Positions 1,426 through 57,991 of a stretch of DNA of 64,000 nt are shown here, piece after piece. The notes below the pieces were generated by a model. That model did no database searches. It saw nothing but the letters and a program-made list of their open reading frames with translations, and was not told where the DNA came from. This stretch comes from a virus (taxonomy: Duplodnaviria; Caudoviricetes), in IMG/VR virus record IMGVR_UViG_3300025120_010521, one strand, 5' to 3'. The position numbers were made by a program, and so were the translations under genes. How positions within the stretch are numbered: the first letter of the stretch is position 1; every line of letters begins with the position of its first letter.

Positions 1426-2313
1426 TTAATCCTTTTTTTTAGCGTCTACTTCATTTATTATAGAATCAGTATGCGGTGCAATTGGCTCTATTATAACCTT
1501 ATCAGTTGTAATAGTTGTTTCTGCTTTTGGCATAAGTGCTTCTGCTTCTTTGGCATTAGCTTCCGCTTGTTCTAATAACTCTGCTTGTAACTTTTGTAAC
1601 TCTTTAATTTGCTTCTCTAAATTTTTGTTGTCTTTTGCAATTTGTTTTATGTTTACTTTTAAAGTTTCATTTTCTTCAAGTACGCCTTCGTCTTTCATAA
1701 TACGTTCATCAATTTCTAAACGTGTATCCATTTTTTCAACATACTTATCGTAATCTGGTCTTTCAATATCGTATTTGTCCCATTGTGCTTTTGCATCTTT
1801 ACCAATCTTACCTTCAAAAGGACATGGCGTACCTGCTTGTTCCATTGATTCAAACACACGTGGATCTTGGCAGAGTATAGCAACTGCGGCAACCTTCATA
1901 CCATAATCGTTCAATAATTTTGACAGTTTCATACGTTCACAATTCATATCTCTTGCAGTTGAACCACCTGATAAACCAACACCTGGTAATTGTAAACCAC
2001 CTGATCTACCAACTGCACAAACATCTTGTGAATAAGCACTCATACTTGGTGCACCTGCACTTGGAACTGGTATAGTGTTTTTGTTATTTGTTGTATTAGT
2101 AGTATCGTTGTTGGTAGTAGAATTGCTAGAAGATCCTGACTGATATGTTGTTGTAGTTTCAGCCGCATAACCACCTGATATAGTAGTGTTTGACCCTGAT
2201 GTGTTTGTTTGTGAATTTGTAGTTGCACCTGAGTTTGTAACATCTGCATAAGCAGATAATGATACAAAACCAAAAAGTGTGGCGATCGCAATTGTTCTTA
2301 TAAAATTGTACAT
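1426..2313 (-). CDS. Secreted protein with Cys-containing domain and coiled coil; candidate -1 frameshift adds a C-terminal membrane anchor ending at 1367
   Basis: Signal peptide MYNFIRTIAIATLFGFVSLSAYA; T/S/N-rich linker; ends GCT AAA AAA AAG GAT TAA. Confidence 0.8.
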   Translation of the reverse strand: MYNFIRTIAIATLFGFVSLSAYADVTNSGATTNSQTNTSGSNTTISGGYAAETTTTYQSGSSSNSTTNNDTTNTTNNKNTIPVPSAGAPSMSAYSQDVCAVGRSGGLQLPGVGLSGGSTARDMNCERMKLSKLLNDYGMKVAAVAILCQDPRVFESMEQAGTPCPFEGKIGKDAKAQWDKYDIERPDYDKYVEKMDTRLEIDERIMKDEGVLEENETLKVNIKQIAKDNKNLEKQIKELQKLQAELLEQAEANAKEAEALMPKAETTITTDKVIIEPIAPHTDSIINEVDAKKKD

Positions 2314-12998: not shown

Positions 12999-15830
12999 TT
13001 ATTTTATAGCAACTTGGTAAGCCATACCACGTTGCTTTTGTCCTCTTACATAAGTATCGCCAATTGTTACAAATTGCATTAATGCTTCTGTTGGTTCATC
13101 AATTGATATTGTTTGTACTCCATCACTTGATAATCTAACTAATAACATAGAATGTAATCCTTGTTTAACTTTATAACTTTGGAAAGCAATTTTTCCAAGT
13201 TGTAAAGGAGAAACATTTGGATAGTTTACAACTGCACTGTCAATTAACCCATCGTCAGCACTTTGATATGCTGTCTTTAATACTAATTTAAAAATTTGTT
13301 TTTGTTGTTCTGATGTTAACGGATTATTTGGATCCTTAGCATATTGCGGATCACTTAATACTTGAGCTAAATGTGGTTGTTTAACTCTTGTTGTTTTTCC
13401 TGGTAGTGTCCTAACACCAGCAGGAACTAATTCTTTATTTAATAAACTATCTGGTCTATTTAAATATGTTTCTAAAGGAGTATCATCATATGCTGTCCAT
13501 CTGCCTCCGCCGCCTGAACTAGTAGATGCTTTAGCTTTAACTTCAATTAATTTACCGCCCCATTTTAAATCGTAACCAGCATCTGGTGACGTTCCAACTG
13601 TAATTTTTCTGTGGAAAGCCGCTAGTGCAACTTCGCCTGGACCAGCTTCACCGGCAAATTTTCCTTGCAATTGAGGATCGTTAATCATTTTTTGGAACAT
13701 TACTGAAGCAATGCCTGATCCTGTCCACCAATCGTCCATAGATTTAACATCACCACTGCCATCAAATAAAATTTCTGGTTTAATATAATTTTGTCTGCCA
13801 AATTCTTTTAGAAATTGAATTTTGGTTGGTATTGGAACTTCCATATCAACTATTATTTGCGATAATCTATTAATAAATTGTTTAGCGTCACTATCCTTAC
13901 CAAAAGCAAATTTTACAATGTTTCCAATATTTCCTGAACGTAAGATACTTGCAACTTTATTTAAAAGTTTTGGATTATCAGTTTTTTGTATTCTTGTTAT
14001 TATTTGTTTTTTTAAAGTATCTGGATCAACTTCGTCTTCTTTTATCATGCCATGTTTAATTAAAAGTTTTTCTAACTGTTCTTTGACCGGTAGCATGTAA
14101 TGATTCTTTCTGCCTTTGGTCAAGTATGAAAGTGTACGCCAAGTTTTAAACCAATCTTCTGTGCCTGGTTTTGATGTTGCTTTCATTTTTTGATGCATTT
14201 CTGTACCTGGATGTGTTAACAAGCTCATTTCGCCGCCATCATTTTGATATGGAACCTCAGCTGGATTTGATATTGTTTTTTTAGCTTCTTTTACTAGATG
14301 ATTAATACTTTTTTTAATTCCTTGCAAATCCATTTGTTGTTGTAGTGTTAAGTCTTTGTTTGAGCCATTAATTTTAATTAATGCTTCTTGCATACGTTTT
14401 ACACGTCTTAAATTTTTTGGTGTCATTATTGGTGGTACTCCATCTTTAGTTACTTTAAATCCAAATTTAGCTGACTGCTTTTTGATTGCATCAACACCAA
14501 CATCATGTGTAGTGTTTATGCCCTTAACAACTCTGCCACCATGTTCTGTTAAATTATTTTTTTCTTTGAAGTCTTTTATACTGTTTTGTACTTTTGACAA
14601 TGGATCTTCATCTGCTTGATACTTAACACCATAACCTCCACGTTGTAGCCAACCTTGTATATTTCTTCCTCTATCATCAATTAGTATATTTTGTGTTCCA
14701 TCTGATTGTACAGCATATGAATCTTTTCTTCCAACAACAATAATTTCATCTGGTTGTATAGCAAGTTCTCTTTTAATCCATTTAATCTTTTGTACTTTTG
14801 AATTTTCATGGTCACCTCTCAACGGAGATGATAATATTTTGTAACTACCAAATTCTTTTACAATCATTTGTATTAATTTGTCTGTAGTTGGAAATTTTGG
14901 TAATCTATTAAAAAAATCTGTACCAATCATTTTATCTAATGTTGGATCTGTTTTAGCAGGTGGAATATCTTTGTAATTTCCTGTAGTTACTCCTGCAAGT
15001 TTGGCATACTCGGCAAAAAAGTTTGCAAGTACTCCATCCATATCAACATAAGCGATTGGTTTACTTTCTGGTGCTTCTAGTTTTGCACTTTCATTAATAT
15101 CATATGATTTGCTTTTGTGTTTTGTATAACCTCTTTTGTCTAGTGCTTTTTTATCTTTGTGTGATCCTGCCGCACCGCTTTTTCTAATGGCTTCCATGTC
15201 TTTCCAATTTGGATCACGTGATTTGATATCTGGTTTCTTTGGCATCTTTGGTTTATTTGCCATTTCCATAATTCCCATACCTTGTCTTACTTTTGTGTAC
15301 AATTGTTGTTTTAATTTTTCGCCACCATCAATAGTTTGTGAAAATGTGTTAAAGTCTCCTGCTTTTGCAAGTGCTCTTGCCTTAGATGCTGACACACCAG
15401 ATACATCAGTAGCATCTGCATCTCTTTCGCCTGAACTTACTATTGAAAATTTCTCAATACCAAAATCTTTAAGATATGGTCTCATTTGTGATTCAAAGTC
15501 TTGTTTACGATCAGAACCAACTACCATAATAACTTCGTTATATTGTTTACCTAATTCTTCTAATGCTTCCCACGGTGTACGAATTGCTGGATCGTCCATA
15601 ATATTCATATGTGGAAACATTGCTCTTAAGAATGTAATTTTATCTTTGTACTGTAATGGATTTTTTTTTGGATCATTAGTTTTACCTGTAAACACATAAT
15701 GGTCTGCACCGCTAGATGCATTTTTTACAACATCCATTAATCGTGCATGTCCTTTAGTTGGAGGATTAAATCTACCAAATGTAAACACTGCCTTTTTTGC
15801 GTTTGGTTCTAATAATTCATTTATGTCCAT
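12999..15830 (-). CDS. Multidomain protein: cytidylyltransferase-like + HAD 5'(3')-nucleotidase-like + PD-(D/E)xK nuclease-like
   Basis: TFGRFNPPTKGH and VVGSDR; YVDMDGVLANF and LIDD; GPGEVALA...YDLKWGGKLIEVK. Confidence 0.75.
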   Translation of the reverse strand: MDINELLEPNAKKAVFTFGRFNPPTKGHARLMDVVKNASSGADHYVFTGKTNDPKKNPLQYKDKITFLRAMFPHMNIMDDPAIRTPWEALEELGKQYNEVIMVVGSDRKQDFESQMRPYLKDFGIEKFSIVSSGERDADATDVSGVSASKARALAKAGDFNTFSQTIDGGEKLKQQLYTKVRQGMGIMEMANKPKMPKKPDIKSRDPNWKDMEAIRKSGAAGSHKDKKALDKRGYTKHKSKSYDINESAKLEAPESKPIAYVDMDGVLANFFAEYAKLAGVTTGNYKDIPPAKTDPTLDKMIGTDFFNRLPKFPTTDKLIQMIVKEFGSYKILSSPLRGDHENSKVQKIKWIKRELAIQPDEIIVVGRKDSYAVQSDGTQNILIDDRGRNIQGWLQRGGYGVKYQADEDPLSKVQNSIKDFKEKNNLTEHGGRVVKGINTTHDVGVDAIKKQSAKFGFKVTKDGVPPIMTPKNLRRVKRMQEALIKINGSNKDLTLQQQMDLQGIKKSINHLVKEAKKTISNPAEVPYQNDGGEMSLLTHPGTEMHQKMKATSKPGTEDWFKTWRTLSYLTKGRKNHYMLPVKEQLEKLLIKHGMIKEDEVDPDTLKKQIITRIQKTDNPKLLNKVASILRSGNIGNIVKFAFGKDSDAKQFINRLSQIIVDMEVPIPTKIQFLKEFGRQNYIKPEILFDGSGDVKSMDDWWTGSGIASVMFQKMINDPQLQGKFAGEAGPGEVALAAFHRKITVGTSPDAGYDLKWGGKLIEVKAKASTSSGGGGRWTAYDDTPLETYLNRPDSLLNKELVPAGVRTLPGKTTRVKQPHLAQVLSDPQYAKDPNNPLTSEQQKQIFKLVLKTAYQSADDGLIDSAVVNYPNVSPLQLGKIAFQSYKVKQGLHSMLLVRLSSDGVQTISIDEPTEALMQFVTIGDTYVRGQKQRGMAYQVAIK

Positions 15831-24685: not shown

Positions 24686-25738
24686 CTATTTTACTGTATA
24701 ACTTTCATAAACTTTGTTTATGTTGTTATACGTGGTTACAAAACTTGCACATTTTGGCATATCTTTTAATCTTCTAGCACCAATATATGTACAAGCACTT
24801 CTTACCCCGCCGAGAATATCTTCTACTGTGTGTTGAACTGGACCACGATATGGTAGTTTGATAAGTCTACCTTCGTTACCTCTATATCCATCTTTTCTTT
24901 TACCGTGTACTTGTCTTGCACGGTCTGAACTCATTCCATAAAATTCAACATGCCCATCAACAACTTTCTGTTCTGATTCATCATGACCTGCTAACATGCC
25001 ACCAATCATTACCATATGAGCTCCGGCACCAAACGCCTTAGCAATATCACCAGGGTGTACACATCCGCCATCAGCAAGTATGTGTCCATCTACTCCATTG
25101 GCCGCATCTGCACAATCTAATATTGCTGAAAATTGCGGAACACCTACACCAGTCATTGTTCTTGTTGTACATACTGATCCAGGACCAATACCAATTTTAA
25201 CAACATCAGCACCATTTATAATAAGTTCTTCTGTCATTTCAGGTGTAACAACATTACCAGCAATAATTACTTTATCTGGAAATTCATCTCTTACACGTTT
25301 AATAAAATCTACAAAATTTTCATGATATGCATTTGCAACATCAACTGTAATAAATTTAATGTCTGGAAATGACTTTAACACTTGTTGCATATTACGATAA
25401 TCTTCTGCTTCTGGATCCCACATTTTATTTGTGCCTGTACATACAGAAACACTTTGTAATCTTACACCATTACCTACTGCTTGTCGCCACTGTTCAACAG
25501 TAGTTGATTTTGTAATTACAGTCATCATTTTATGCTCTTGTAATACTTTAGCCATACTAAATGTTCCTACGCCATCCATGTTTGAAGCAAAGATAGGTAA
25601 AAAGTTTACAACTTTACCAGAGTTTCTAAATGTAAACTTTCTTGTCATGTCAACATCTTTACGACTTGATAATGTAGAACGCTTTGGTTCTAATAATACA
25701 TCATCAAAATTAAGTTTAGGTTGTGTGTTAATACGCAT
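24686..25738 (-). CDS. guaC: GMP reductase
   Basis: [50 protein letters not shown]. Confidence 0.92.
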
Positions 25739-25742
25739 GATA

Positions 25743-26717
25743 TTATCCTTTTAGTTTTTTTTTGACCTGTGGTCCTAATAATTCTTTTGTGAACGTTGAA
25801 TACACATCTGGTTTGAAATGAATTTTATCTGAATGCATTTCATTAAATGCTGTTTTACTACCTGCTTTTTGTTTAGCCCAATTAATAAAAGACCAATCCA
25901 TTTTTTCATTTAACCAATACTCCGGCTTATCTAAAACATTTTTATATGTATCTGTAAATACATGATTTTCATCATATTGTTTATCGCAGTGTGTAAACAA
26001 TAAAAATTTAACATCTAATGATTTTAAGGTATTAATAATATTCATCATATTTGAAAGATAATTAGAAATGTCTGTATCGCTCATATCCATAAACACAGAA
26101 TAAAAATAACAATAAATTAACATATTTTTAAATTGTTCATCATTATTACCTAATGCTTTATATAGCTCATCAAATTTTCTTTTTACATTGTCTCTTTCAT
26201 GCTCACTTAAACTTGCACTTCTATAAAAACCTTCTACTGTCCAAGTTGTTTTACCTTTAAAAAAATCACGTACAGATGCTTTTGTATCAGCACCATGATA
26301 AAAATCAACACATTCTTGTTTTGAAAGACTTTTTCTATTTGGCCATCCATACTGTTGTCCTTTAGACCAATCTTTAGTTAGCACTCGTTGTCTTGAATAG
26401 ATGGGATGATAATCTTTTTCTTTATTAATATATGTTCCAGTGATATGACTAGAAATTTCTACATCTACTTTATCAGTGTCGGGTACTTCTATAACAAACA
26501 TATCTGGTTTATACTCGTTATAAAAATTTAATATTTTTGTTGGATAAAAGAAAGACGAAAAAGAACTTTCGCCGCCATTGTATATATAATTCTCTATTCC
26601 ATTTTGTTCTAAATATGTACTTAAATGTCCAGGCCATCCACTTTTAAAAGGATAAGGAATTCCGTTTCCTCCGCCAAATGTATGACTAGTGCCTAAGCAA
26701 ACAATTTTCTGCATCAT
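25743..26717 (-). CDS. SGNH/GDSL hydrolase-like protein
   Basis: IVCLGTSHTFG block I; late SDKIHF (DxxH). Confidence 0.6.
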   Translation of the reverse strand: MMQKIVCLGTSHTFGGGNGIPYPFKSGWPGHLSTYLEQNGIENYIYNGGESSFSSFFYPTKILNFYNEYKPDMFVIEVPDTDKVDVEISSHITGTYINKEKDYHPIYSRQRVLTKDWSKGQQYGWPNRKSLSKQECVDFYHGADTKASVRDFFKGKTTWTVEGFYRSASLSEHERDNVKRKFDELYKALGNNDEQFKNMLIYCYFYSVFMDMSDTDISNYLSNMMNIINTLKSLDVKFLLFTHCDKQYDENHVFTDTYKNVLDKPEYWLNEKMDWSFINWAKQKAGSKTAFNEMHSDKIHFKPDVYSTFTKELLGPQVKKKLKG

Positions 26718-54441: not shown

Positions 54442-54998
54442 CTCTTTTTTGTATCACTATCTTTATCTTTAGTAATAACAGCTATAATTCTGTTTCCAGC
54501 TTGTTTTGGTGGTGAATCATATTTAGTTTGCTCTAATTTTTTAACCATCATATTAATTTGATCAATGAACATTCTGCCGTTTGGTATTTCTCTACCTCGT
54601 AGCTTCATAACTATTTTTACCTTATCTCCATCGTTAATAAACTCTTGAGCTTTTTTAAGTTTAACATTAAGATCATGTACATCAATATTTGGCCTAAATT
54701 GTAATTCACGTAACTCTATTCTATTTTGTCTTTCAAGTTTTTTCTTTTGCTTGTCTTTTTTTTGTTTTTCATAGTTCCATTTTCCAAAATCCATAATACG
54801 ACATACAGGCGGATCAGCTTTTACTGTTGTGCATATAAGATCTAAATTACTTTCTTTTGCTTTTGAAAGTGCTGTTTTATTATCAACTATTCCAATAAAT
54901 GCTCCATCTGGGTCAATAAGTCTAACTTTTGGAAATGTAATTGCTGAATTTAACAATACACTTGGTTGTTGATTTCTGTAACGAAATGGTTTTTTCAC
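54438..54998 (-). CDS. infC: Translation initiation factor IF3
   Basis: VRLID, DPPVCRIMDFGKWNYE, ELQFRPNIDVHDLNVK, KVKIVMKLRGRE; ATG start. Confidence 0.93.
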   Translation of the reverse strand: MKKPFRYRNQQPSVLLNSAITFPKVRLIDPDGAFIGIVDNKTALSKAKESNLDLICTTVKADPPVCRIMDFGKWNYEKQKKDKQKKKLERQNRIELRELQFRPNIDVHDLNVKLKKAQEFINDGDKVKIVMKLRGREIPNGRMFIDQINMMVKKLEQTKYDSPPKQAGNRIIAVITKDKDSDTKKS

Positions 54999-56254
54999 TA
55001 TGCTCCGTTTTTCTTATCTACTGTTTTGTAAATTAGCATTGGTGACTTACTTTCTGTTATTACTGTATCATTAATTACAATTTTTTCAACATCTTGTTGT
55101 TTTAGTAATGGCAATTCATATTGTAATTCTAATAGAATTTTTTCAAGAACAGAACGTAATCCTCTAGCACCAATTTTCTTTTCTAATGCTTCACTGGCTA
55201 CAACTTCTATAGCTTCTTTTGTAAATTCTAATTTTACTCCATCTAACTTAAACATTTTTTCAAATTGTTTTAACACTGCGTTTTTTGGCTTGGTTAAAAC
55301 GTGTATAAGGTCTGTATGCGTTAAACTATGACATGCTACTACAACTGGCAGTCGACCTACCATTTCTGGTATAAGACCAAATTTAACAACATCATCCGGT
55401 TGTACTTTTGATAATATTTGATCAAATTCTTCTTGTGACTCAAAGTTAGACATAAATCCCATTGATGTGTTTACATTTAATCTACGTTTAACAATTTCAT
55501 CCAAACCAACAAATGCTCCACCACATATAAACAAAATATTTGTAGTATCAACTTCAATTAAATCTTGTTGTGGATGTTTTCTTCCTCCTTGTGGCGGAAC
55601 TCTAACAGTTGTACCTTCAAGTAATTTTAATAATGCTTGTTGTACACCTTCACCTGATACATCTCTTGTAATTGATGTGTTTTCTGACTTACGTGACTTT
55701 TTGTCTATTTCGTCAATATATACAATACCTCGTTGGGCACGGTCAACATCAAAATCACAACTTTGTAACAGTCTTAGAATAATATTTTCAACATCATCAC
55801 CAACATAACCACTTTCAGTTAATGTTGTTGCATCTGCTTGGGCAAATGGTACATCTAAATAATCTGCAACTTTCTGAGCCAACAATGTTTTACCGCAACC
55901 ACTTGGCCCAGCTAATAATACATTTGACTTTTCTAATTCTACTCCGTCAACAACAGGATTATTTAATCTTTTATAATGATTATAAACTGCAACACTTAAA
56001 ACTTTTTTTGCTTGTTCTTGTCCAATTACATGTTCATCTAAATGTAATTTTAATTCATCAGGTATAATAACTTTTAAGGCTTTAGTTTCTTTGCCGTCTG
56101 CTTTTTGAATATCGTTTTCTTCTAATATTGAATAGCATAAGTCTACACATTCATTACATATATAAACTTTAGGTCCTGCAATTAGTTTTGTAACTTTAGA
56201 TCTTTCTTTACCACAGAACGAACAACTGTAGGAATCATCTTTTTTCTTAACCAT
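54998..56254 (-). CDS. clpX: ClpX ATPase
   Basis: CSFC...CNEC Zn finger; GPSGCGKT; YIDEIDK; [14 protein letters not shown]; MGF loop; GARGLR. Confidence 0.97.
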
Positions 56255-56255
56255 T

Positions 56256-56438
56256 CTAATCCTTCTTGTCTATTTTACCAACATAAGGTTTAATCCAACC
56301 AACCGGCTTTGGCTTATCCTTTGATTTTTTTAAACTGTCAGCTTTTATTGTTTTATTTATAATAGCACGATTTTGCTCAATGTCAATCTCTTTTTTAAAT
56401 TCTTTCATAGACAATCTAAGGTCTTCTTTAAATTTCAT
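56256..56438 (-). CDS. Track ORF; probably the tail of the -1 frameshift product of 56597..57991
   Basis: Frame is open 55 codons further upstream, to the A9 run at 56603-56611. Confidence 0.55.
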
Positions 56439-56596
56439 TATTATTTCTGGCCTACCTAAAAGTTGACTTACTTGTATTTGTTCTTTAGGTTTTATTTCTA
56501 TTTCTTCAACCTTAATTTGTTTGTGAGTTATTTCTTTTTTCTCTGGAATTATATTAACATTATCTTCAATATTTAATTGAATTCTGTCATTCGCGG

Positions 56597-57991
56597 TCAG
56601 TCTTTTTTTTTCTTAACGTCATCATTTGATTTGACATTTATCGACTCATCGATGTTAATAACTGTTTTTTCTGGTTTTTCTTTTGCTATTTGATTCTGAT
56701 ATTCTAATTGCTCTTGTAATTCTTGTTCTGTTTGTGAAAGTTTTTCACGAAATTCATCTAGTTCAACTTCATGTCTTTTTTTTAGATCATCAATAACTTC
56801 ATCATCTAAATTAGATTGGTTATCATCTTGTTTAGGTTCTTCACTAGTAGAATACTTTTTTACTAATTCTGGATCATATTGTTTTTCAAACCCTCTACCA
56901 AAGCGTCTAATAAACGACATGTTTGCCGCAATTAAAAGTAATACAGCAAGTGGATCAAATACAAATATGATAATAATAATTACCCAACGTACTGCCGCTT
57001 CTAATAAATTTTGATTTGCTTCTTGTCCATACACGAATTCAGCAATATATTTTAATGGACCAACTTCAACTTCTAATTGTGCTTGTTTGCTAATTAATAC
57101 AATTTTATCTTCATTAACTGTGTCAATTTTATCTTGTTCAGCTTCAATTTGATCTTCTAGTGCAATAATTTTACCGTCAATATCACCTGTCTTTGTGTTT
57201 GCTTGGCCTTTGTAATCTTGTATTATTGTTTCAATACTTTTAATTTGATCAGTATATTTAGAATCGACTCCAGCAAGATCTTCTTTTAATTTAGTTTGTG
57301 TTTGTACTATTATCTTTTGAGCCGCTGATGCTACAGCAAGTTCATTTGCTGTTGCTTTTGCTATTGCTTCATCTAAACCTTTTTTACTAAATGATCCTTT
57401 AAAACGTTCTTGTGCCGCGGCAATGTCTGCTTCTTTACGTTCTTGTGCTTGTACAAGTCTATTGTTTTGTAATTCAATATCTTTATCTGCTTGATCTCTT
57501 AATGTTTGTTTTTCACTGTCAATACGTGCATATAGTTTATCTAGTTCTACAAGCTCTTTATCAATTAAATTATCAACTCTAACATCTTCGCCTTTTGATA
57601 ATCTTTGAATATCTAAAGACCAACGTTCTATTCTATTTTCTGAACGTAATAACTTTTCTTCAATGGTTGCTAATTTTTCTGTACCAATTGTACCTAATGA
57701 TGTTTGCTCAACATGTGCTTTGGATAAAAAACCAAATATACCCATTGACGTAATAAACATTAATACTACTACTGCTATAGACAAATATGATTTAATAAGA
57801 ATTGGCGTTACTTTCCAATTTTGGTATAGCCATGAAGCTGTAACAAGTTTTCCAACTTCTAATACTGAACCCATAACCATAATTGGAATCGCCGCACCTG
57901 CAAAGATTGCCGCCAAACCTAGTATGGAATAATATATTGCAACTGCTGAAATACTTAGGGCAGTCACCAATGTTAATAGCGCCATAAACAT
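56597..57991 (-). CDS. Multi-TM membrane protein with long coiled coil
   Basis: N-terminal TMs (LEVGKLVTASWL), coiled coil, EVGPLKYIAE, IFVFDPLAVLLLIAAN; ends AAG AAA AAA AAA GAC TGA. Confidence 0.85.
   Translation of the reverse strand: MFMALLTLVTALSISAVAIYYSILGLAAIFAGAAIPIMVMGSVLEVGKLVTASWLYQNWKVTPILIKSYLSIAVVVLMFITSMGIFGFLSKAHVEQTSLGTIGTEKLATIEEKLLRSENRIERWSLDIQRLSKGEDVRVDNLIDKELVELDKLYARIDSEKQTLRDQADKDIELQNNRLVQAQERKEADIAAAQERFKGSFSKKGLDEAIAKATANELAVASAAQKIIVQTQTKLKEDLAGVDSKYTDQIKSIETIIQDYKGQANTKTGDIDGKIIALEDQIEAEQDKIDTVNEDKIVLISKQAQLEVEVGPLKYIAEFVYGQEANQNLLEAAVRWVIIIIIFVFDPLAVLLLIAANMSFIRRFGRGFEKQYDPELVKKYSTSEEPKQDDNQSNLDDEVIDDLKKRHEVELDEFREKLSQTEQELQEQLEYQNQIAKEKPEKTVINIDESINVKSNDDVKKKKD

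Follow-up and report, generated by a model that had tools for sequence, protein, structure and literature searches.

We analyzed a 64,000-nucleotide (nt) stretch of DNA from a virus of the Caudoviricetes (IMG/VR record IMGVR_UViG_3300025120_010521), referred to below as the window, and focused on a site on its minus strand where the gene for a predicted membrane/coiled-coil protein ends in a run of nine A residues (A9) shortly ahead of clpX. In its annotated frame (the 0 frame), this gene closes with the codons GTT AAG AAA AAA AAA GAC TGA, and the frame one nucleotide back (the -1 frame) stays open from the run up to clpX. A first-pass annotation of the sequence had described this end of the gene, as well as a -1 frame that is open from 56603 for 55 codons, continues into an open reading frame (ORF) at 56256..56438 and ends 1 nt before the clpX ATG; we found both descriptions to hold on the minus strand. 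The elements of the site are the following:

57991..56597, minus strand: 0-frame ORF of the membrane/coiled-coil protein, 464 amino acids (aa), with the C-terminus KKKKD followed by TGA.
56615..56638, minus strand: weak predicted hairpin of 6 + 3 bp, of uncertain status, whose end lies 3 nt 5' of the run.
56615..56613, minus strand: -1-frame TAA within GTT AAG, directly 5' of the A9 run; TTAAG is present in 15/15 contigs of the window's clade.
56614..56612, minus strand: AAG Lys codon, the rarer one (18% usage), which limits the run to nine A.
56611..56603, minus strand (T9 on the plus strand): A9 run, 0-frame codons AAA AAA AAA, unchanged in 15/15 contigs of the same clade.
56609..56603, minus strand: candidate slippery heptamer A_AAA_AAA, in phase, within the A9 run.
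56597..56599, minus strand: 0-frame TGA, one codon past the A9 run, which terminates the 464-aa product; TGA, TAA or TAG in relatives.
56256..56603, minus strand: -1-frame extension of 115 codons plus TAG, beginning with AGA at 56603 and ending with the TAG at 56258..56256.
56438..56256, minus strand: ATG-initiated ORF of 60 aa, which is what a gene caller would report.
54998..56254, minus strand: clpX, 418 aa, with zinc-finger and AAA+ domains; its ATG lies 1 nt past the TAG of the extension.

Because the -1-frame TAA abuts the run, entry into the -1 frame is restricted to the run itself. The extension consists of 55 codons up to the ATG followed by the 60-aa ORF, and the predicted transframe product accordingly comprises 578 aa (463 + 115). 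The noncoding-looking gap of 158 nt at 56439..56596 is real and, as the first-pass annotation had suggested, would be explained by the extension, the 55 upstream codons of which behave as coding sequence (see below).

Loci for comparison were gathered by querying viral and metagenome contigs, first with the membrane protein and later with its extension. A group of 15 contigs, drawn from many samples and studies (the window itself, L001-L003, L082 and L086-L095), forms what we call the window clade, within which the extensions are 55-75% identical to that of the window. The junction proved to be strictly conserved: all 15 contigs carry [AG]TTAAG-A9-GACT together with the 0-frame stop, which varies between TGA, TAA and TAG among contigs and is never lost. 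Across these contigs, the -1 ORF has a length of 92-120 codons and clpX lies 0-4 nt beyond it. The block TT AAG AAA AAA AAA AGA showed no variation whatsoever in 13 aligned sequences; in the same alignment, a single codon was used in 48 of the 111 amino-acid-invariant columns and, away from the site, in 8 of 16 columns with an invariant Lys. When all viral contigs were scanned for junctions whose run measured 8-10 A, the homologues had A9 only and none had A8 or A10 (62 of the 66 matches were unrelated chance occurrences). A large protein collection contained no longer protein that fuses the extension in frame, which is weak evidence. Sequencing runs were examined as assembled Logan contigs, from which minor variants are dropped, and an independent DNA contig of depth 24 was seen to span the site with A9 and without any insertion or deletion (indel).

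Selection in the -1 frame could be traced through the stretch that leads from the run to the internal Met, at which the 60-aa ORF starts. Within the window clade, these 55 codons showed a ratio of nonsynonymous to synonymous polymorphism (pN/pS) of 0.33-0.65, their variable columns were distributed over the three codon positions as 28/12/37, and the -1 frame contained zero stops, compared to 3-9 per sequence in each other frame. All indels in the stretch comprised whole codons, including one deletion of 26 codons (in L002), and similarity begins at the very first codon past the run, with the pattern R-L-x-x-x-D. The internal Met is kept in 15/15 members of the clade, and no ATG, GTG or TTG is conserved in the 55 codons ahead of it. 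Every available sequence test thus indicates that the stretch ahead of the internal Met is translated. A restart at the CTG that overlaps the 0-frame stop (CTGA) was considered as well and rejected, as this codon is CTA in 6 of 13 aligned clade members.

A second clade of nine contigs (L004, L005, L098, L006, L103, L030, L036, L099 and L101) showed the same layout at a much larger distance, with a membrane part that is 57-65% identical to that of the window and an extension that is 14-23% identical. The extension is nevertheless homologous, lies in the -1 frame and is followed by clpX, and it shares with that of the window clade the block E-[VFI]-[KQN]-K-x-I-[DN]-[IMT]-[ED] and a near-C-terminal W-[ILFM]. 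Its pN/pS was mostly 0.22-0.5, and it contains no stops, versus 4-16 in the other frames. The position of the window-clade Met is occupied by Ile or Leu, and five members have no ATG, GTG or TTG ahead of the conserved block. While the run in this clade is either A9, as (C/G)TA AAA AAA AAG, or A8, as G(T/C)T AAA AAA AAG, the in-phase heptamer A_AAA_AAG is constant in the nine contigs. The sole exception among these relatives is L011/L105 (IMGVR_UViG_3300017714_003136), which has one A fewer at L011:5668-5675, so that its A8 is out of phase and its extension lies in the +1 frame; this may reflect natural variation in the length of the run, a mistake in the assembly, or a lineage that requires a different shift.

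A third subclade, made up of L063/L187 and of L188, with 212 differences in 1400 nt (15% nt divergence) between them, carries the sequence CTA GAA AAA AAG TAA, that is, an A7 run with A_AAA_AAG in phase, followed by a -1 extension of 110 aa. This extension is homologous to a C-terminal domain that two other relatives, L052 and L056, encode in frame (expectation values (E) of 1e-21 and 9e-24). The in-frame domain provides a natural control, indicating that the -1 ORF behind the Lys heptamer belongs to the same protein in this family. In all 28 recoding contigs, the heptamer A_AAA_AAR (of the type X_XXY_YYZ) is in phase, at run lengths of A7, A8 or A9.

Some further relatives merit mention. At 44% identity, L044 (L044:5509-5517) reads CTA AAA AAA AAG TTC TGA, with A9, an in-phase A_AAA_AAG and a -1 ORF of 47 codons in which no similarity to the other extensions was detected; clpX follows 1.2 kb further on, and the locus may represent a fourth recoding case. 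The in-frame tail of L046-L050 (KKVSWINTP...) and the VGWIKPY of the extension were aligned by hhalign over 12 columns with an E of 0.22, which falls short of significance and amounts to a hint at the level of a motif only.

We consider it very probable that the A9 site serves programmed -1 recoding. The site, its frame layout, its conservation and the coding selection in the -1 frame are established by comparison: the heptamer is in phase, the -1 ORF can be entered only at the site, and layout and selection are conserved, whereas a stimulatory element, which is common at such sites but not obligatory, was not found. The first-pass annotation had proposed that the membrane protein gains 115 residues when the ribosome shifts to the -1 frame, or the polymerase slips, on the A run. 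This proposal found strong comparative support, given that independent assemblies read A9 and not A10, that no close homologue encodes the region in frame, and that the -1 frame shows codon-like selection (pN/pS below 1 and no stops).

Which machine slips, and how efficiently, we infer from the same comparisons, and here our preference is a slight one: ribosomal -1 frameshifting would be the main mechanism. Most ribosomes would read AAG AAA AAA AAA GAC TGA and release the 464-aa membrane protein, while some would slip back by 1 nt on A_AAA_AAA, with the two tRNA-Lys re-pairing on AAA AAA. The slipped ribosomes would then read AGA CTG ACC... and yield the 578-aa isoform with its largely disordered 115-residue tail. 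We favor the ribosomal route because the in-phase A_AAA_AAR is common to the three subclades while the length of the run varies, and A_AAA_AAG is known to be highly shift-prone in E. coli (PMC5009743, PMC4066793).

Several observations weigh against this preference. No conserved downstream stem-loop or pseudoknot was detected (fold z-scores were near 0, and no consensus structure emerged), nor did we find an upstream Shine-Dalgarno (SD)-like stimulator or an Rfam match at the site; lacking a stimulator, a purely ribosomal shift may be of low efficiency. Organisms with a separate tRNA-Lys(CUU) shift less on A_AAA_AAG (PMC5009743). The exact retention of nine A in the window clade is also what selection for polymerase slippage is expected to produce. 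Lastly, the sole RNA-library contig across the site reads A9 at a depth of 2, with 19 nt on one side, and is uninformative on minor species.

The competing explanation, which we regard as possible but clearly less probable, is that transcriptional slippage is the main mechanism, with the RNA polymerase realigning on the A9/T9 hybrid such that an A10 mRNA encodes the same 578-aa protein. The constancy of the run speaks for it, as it is exactly nine in 15/15 contigs of the window clade and is capped by the rarer AAG codon, and so does the ability of bacterial RNA polymerase to slip efficiently in vivo on nine A/T residues, an ability of which Thermus dnaX and Shigella spa13 make use (PMC5009743). 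A conserved ORF layout combined with 9A in non-identical homologues, which Baranov proposed as a criterion for such sites (PMC1088944), is indeed found in the window clade, yet the sister subclades keep the layout with A8 or A7, and their in-phase A_AAA_AAG suits the ribosome better. Similarly ambiguous is the weak hairpin located 3 nt 5' of the run: nascent-RNA hairpins at this position can stimulate slippage (PMC5009743), but this one shows one compensatory pair against several broken pairs and is absent from the sister clade. That no ribosomal stimulator was found at the site fits the polymerase as well; the RNA-library contig reads A9, at a depth that says nothing about minor species.

The homopolymers of the window bear on the same question. 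A/T runs of length 9 occur four times in the 64 kb, versus 6.7 expected from composition under a first-order model, and hence the count is within chance, and the significance of the site rests on its conservation and not on the run itself. Runs of at least 10 are absent, compared to 4.2 expected under the first-order model, which suggests selection against very long homopolymers, as would be expected if long runs were hazardous; at length 9 there is no such depletion. A further A9 run (15661-15669, minus strand, CCA AAA AAA AAT) lies in frame within a 943-codon ORF, indicating that A9 is tolerated inside genes, which speaks against the polymerase as the main route. If polymerase slippage on A9 does take place in this phage, truncated products are predicted from the 943-codon ORF. 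Another A9 run, at 25755-25763, is found six codons ahead of the stop of a 324-aa ORF (...GPQVKKKLKG); behind it, the -1 frame closes after no more than 23 codons, within a region that the next gene (24686..25738) already covers in a different frame, and we do not find it convincing as a recoding site.

Ribosomal frameshifting and polymerase slippage are not mutually exclusive. An additional A in the transcript would give the identical protein, and polymerase slippage may contribute in the window clade even where ribosomal frameshifting, our preferred mechanism, prevails. Taken together, the A7, A8 and A9 runs, their two codon phases and the in-frame relatives constitute a natural series by which ribosomal and polymerase slippage can be separated.

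We deem it very unlikely that the broken frame reflects an artefact or a state of the DNA itself, be it a homopolymer assembly error that hides a true A10 and one uninterrupted ORF of 578 aa, a tract made phase-variable by replication slippage, or a pseudogene in decay. Homopolymers are, to be sure, error-prone and mutable, and the sister-clade L011/L105 with its missing A and +1 extension shows a change of just this kind. In addition, two contigs from the DNA run X5 (56274-56628 and 56606-57100, depth about 4) end or overlap at the A run, a break that could stem from length heterogeneity or merely from low depth and is not interpretable. On the other side, A9 was read in 15 contigs from many samples and studies and in the depth-24 contig without an indel, no junction with A8 or A10 occurs among the homologous viral contigs, and the 0-frame stop has been kept through three different stop codons. 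Moreover, the layout persists under purifying selection between extensions that are only 14-23% identical, which excludes decay.

That no recoding occurs at all, with the 60-aa ORF (56438..56256) being a separate small gene behind an untranslated spacer that reaches from the run to the Met, is still less credible: gene callers would report this ORF and its Met is conserved in all 15 window-clade members, but the alleged spacer shows the evolution of a coding sequence when read in the -1 frame (no stops, versus 3-9 in each other frame), homology begins right at the run, the sister clade has Ile or Leu in place of the Met and includes five members that lack any canonical start ahead of the block, and the CTG or CTA over the 0-frame stop, CTA in 6/13, offers no usable restart. 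Our interpretation, based on the replacement of the Met in the sister clade and the coding character of the 55 codons upstream, is that the 60-aa ORF represents the 3' half of the extension and not a gene of its own.

The first-pass annotation had further proposed that the device recurs within this phage, pointing to a second gene that likewise ends in KKKD and a stop and likewise encodes an envelope protein:

1426..2313, minus strand: gene of 295 aa, ending in KKKD followed by a stop.

The likeness of the two C-termini stood, but the second gene has a run of A8, and a stop closes its -1 frame after just 23 codons. Recurrence within the phage was not borne out: 13 sampled relatives of the second gene, up to 81% identical, lack both the run and the KKKD tail. 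Two of them (L106 and L111) lie on the contigs that also carry L036 and L030 and have no run, although those contigs conserve the site in the membrane gene. Recurrence is thus seen across the relatives of the membrane gene, whereas sequence comparison gives no support for it within the phage. The label of envelope protein is itself an inference from predicted transmembrane segments.

As to the proteins, the 464-aa product has hydrophobic segments at residues 1-47, 60-92 and 327-362, with a charged, coiled-coil-like loop of ~234 residues between hydrophobic segments and a charged C-terminal tail. It falls into a large, unnamed, virus-only family. No Pfam, PHROG or NCBIfam family was found for it, and searches including the Atlas gave no function for either the membrane part or the extension; sub-threshold matches to Tetraspanin and DUF4650 were disregarded. 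The positive-inside rule, applied to the RRFGRGFEK that follows the last predicted transmembrane segment, suggests that the tail is cytoplasmic. Structure prediction of the extension gave a mean predicted local distance difference test score (pLDDT) of 56, with mostly low-confidence or disordered sequence and one helix at residues 75-88, such that the extension looks like a motif-bearing tail in this model.

The gene is flanked by a cupin-like ORF upstream and by clpX downstream, with the order clpX-infC-rpsU nearby; the window as a whole encodes six tRNAs, none of them a tRNA-Lys. The pairing of the membrane protein gene with clpX is kept in many subclades, including those with an in-frame tail, and on the basis of this conserved pair a functional link of the membrane protein to ClpX is possible. 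The SD-like AAGGA of clpX is located within the final codons of the extension (AAG AAG GAT TAG A ATG, 56256-56275), and clpX initiation may partly constrain the conserved KKD C-terminus of the extension. Ribosomes that complete the long isoform would stop 1 nt short of the clpX start. Among cultured phages, Pelagibacter phage Mosig EXVC030M alone provides a homologue with good coverage, a hypothetical protein of 327 aa that lacks the tail (L081, MT647606.1 115144-116124). Its gene directly follows a putative glucosaminidase gene and lies near a gene for a GH108 lysozyme-like protein, neighbors that may hint at a role of the family related to the cell envelope or to lysis.

A more far-reaching scenario, which we put forward as speculation and judge unlikely, would make recoding an ancient, family-wide route to an optional C-terminal module, by which three subclades reach different tails via a -1 shift at A_AAA_AAR, at the same domain boundary, with other members fusing the module in frame. 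In the window clade, the frameshift-dependent tail would then link a constant share of the membrane protein to the ClpX of the phage, acting either as tether or adaptor, or as a signal for degradation, and might in addition couple clpX translation to the shift.

Literature searches returned no description of the site, which is no proof of absence. Its position next to a phage-encoded clpX and translation genes adds to its interest, as does the way in which it is overlooked: in the output of gene callers, the gene falls apart into a 464-aa protein and a spurious 60-aa ORF, with a false 'intergenic' gap of 158 nt between them, and the 578-aa isoform is consequently missing from protein databases. 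A regulated ratio of tail-less to tailed forms would, moreover, offer a first handle on what this protein does.

Among known systems, the tau/gamma frameshift of E. coli dnaX and the insertion sequences of the IS911/IS3 type resemble the site in their in-phase Lys-Lys heptamer (A_AAA_AAG in the sister clades, A_AAA_AAA in the window), in the narrow overlap between an upstream -1 stop and a downstream 0-frame stop, and in obtaining two products from one gene. They differ in that the sites of dnaX and IS911 are flanked by an SD-like element upstream and a stem-loop downstream, neither of which is detectable here, and the shifted product of dnaX is the shorter one while the shifted product at our site would be the longer one. 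A run of nine A/T residues is shared with Shigella spa13 (and with mxiE, spa33 and mxiA) and with Thermus thermophilus dnaX (PMC5009743). In geometry, spa13 is the closest system, since a minority of its product (25-30%) is extended at the C-terminus by ~112 aa, the coding end of which abuts or overlaps the next gene (PMC5009743), an arrangement nearly identical to the 115 aa that end 1 nt ahead of clpX here. Slippage in spa13 and Thermus dnaX has been demonstrated experimentally, whereas the present site is known from sequence comparison, and relatives of the phage gene retain the layout with A7 or A8, which makes slippage by the polymerase less plausible as a general mechanism.

In protein type, the closest counterpart is tssM of Citrobacter rodentium and Yersinia, an inner-membrane protein whose gene is broken after a poly-A tract, giving two C-terminal length variants (PMC4256274), the ratio of which is functionally important (PMC4256274). 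The tssM case differs in having an A11 tract, in belonging to a bacterial type VI secretion system component of known function, and in that its long form is the canonical full-length protein (PMC4256274). Phages themselves extend C-termini by frameshifting in the lambda tail assembly chaperone gpG/gpGT and in the T7 capsid protein 10A/10B, both of them virion-assembly or structural genes of the tail or capsid module, and tail assembly chaperones account for 2397 of the 2476 frameshifts annotated in SEA-PHAGES (PMC10885494). The gene described here has no Pfam or PHROG match to such a chaperone and does not lie between the tail tube and tape measure genes. Overall, while nearly all annotated phage frameshifts reside in tail assembly chaperone or capsid genes, the present case concerns a widespread, unannotated membrane family of large marine phages, and appears to represent a known type of recoding, well supported by sequence comparison, in an unusual phage gene for a predicted polytopic membrane/coiled-coil protein.

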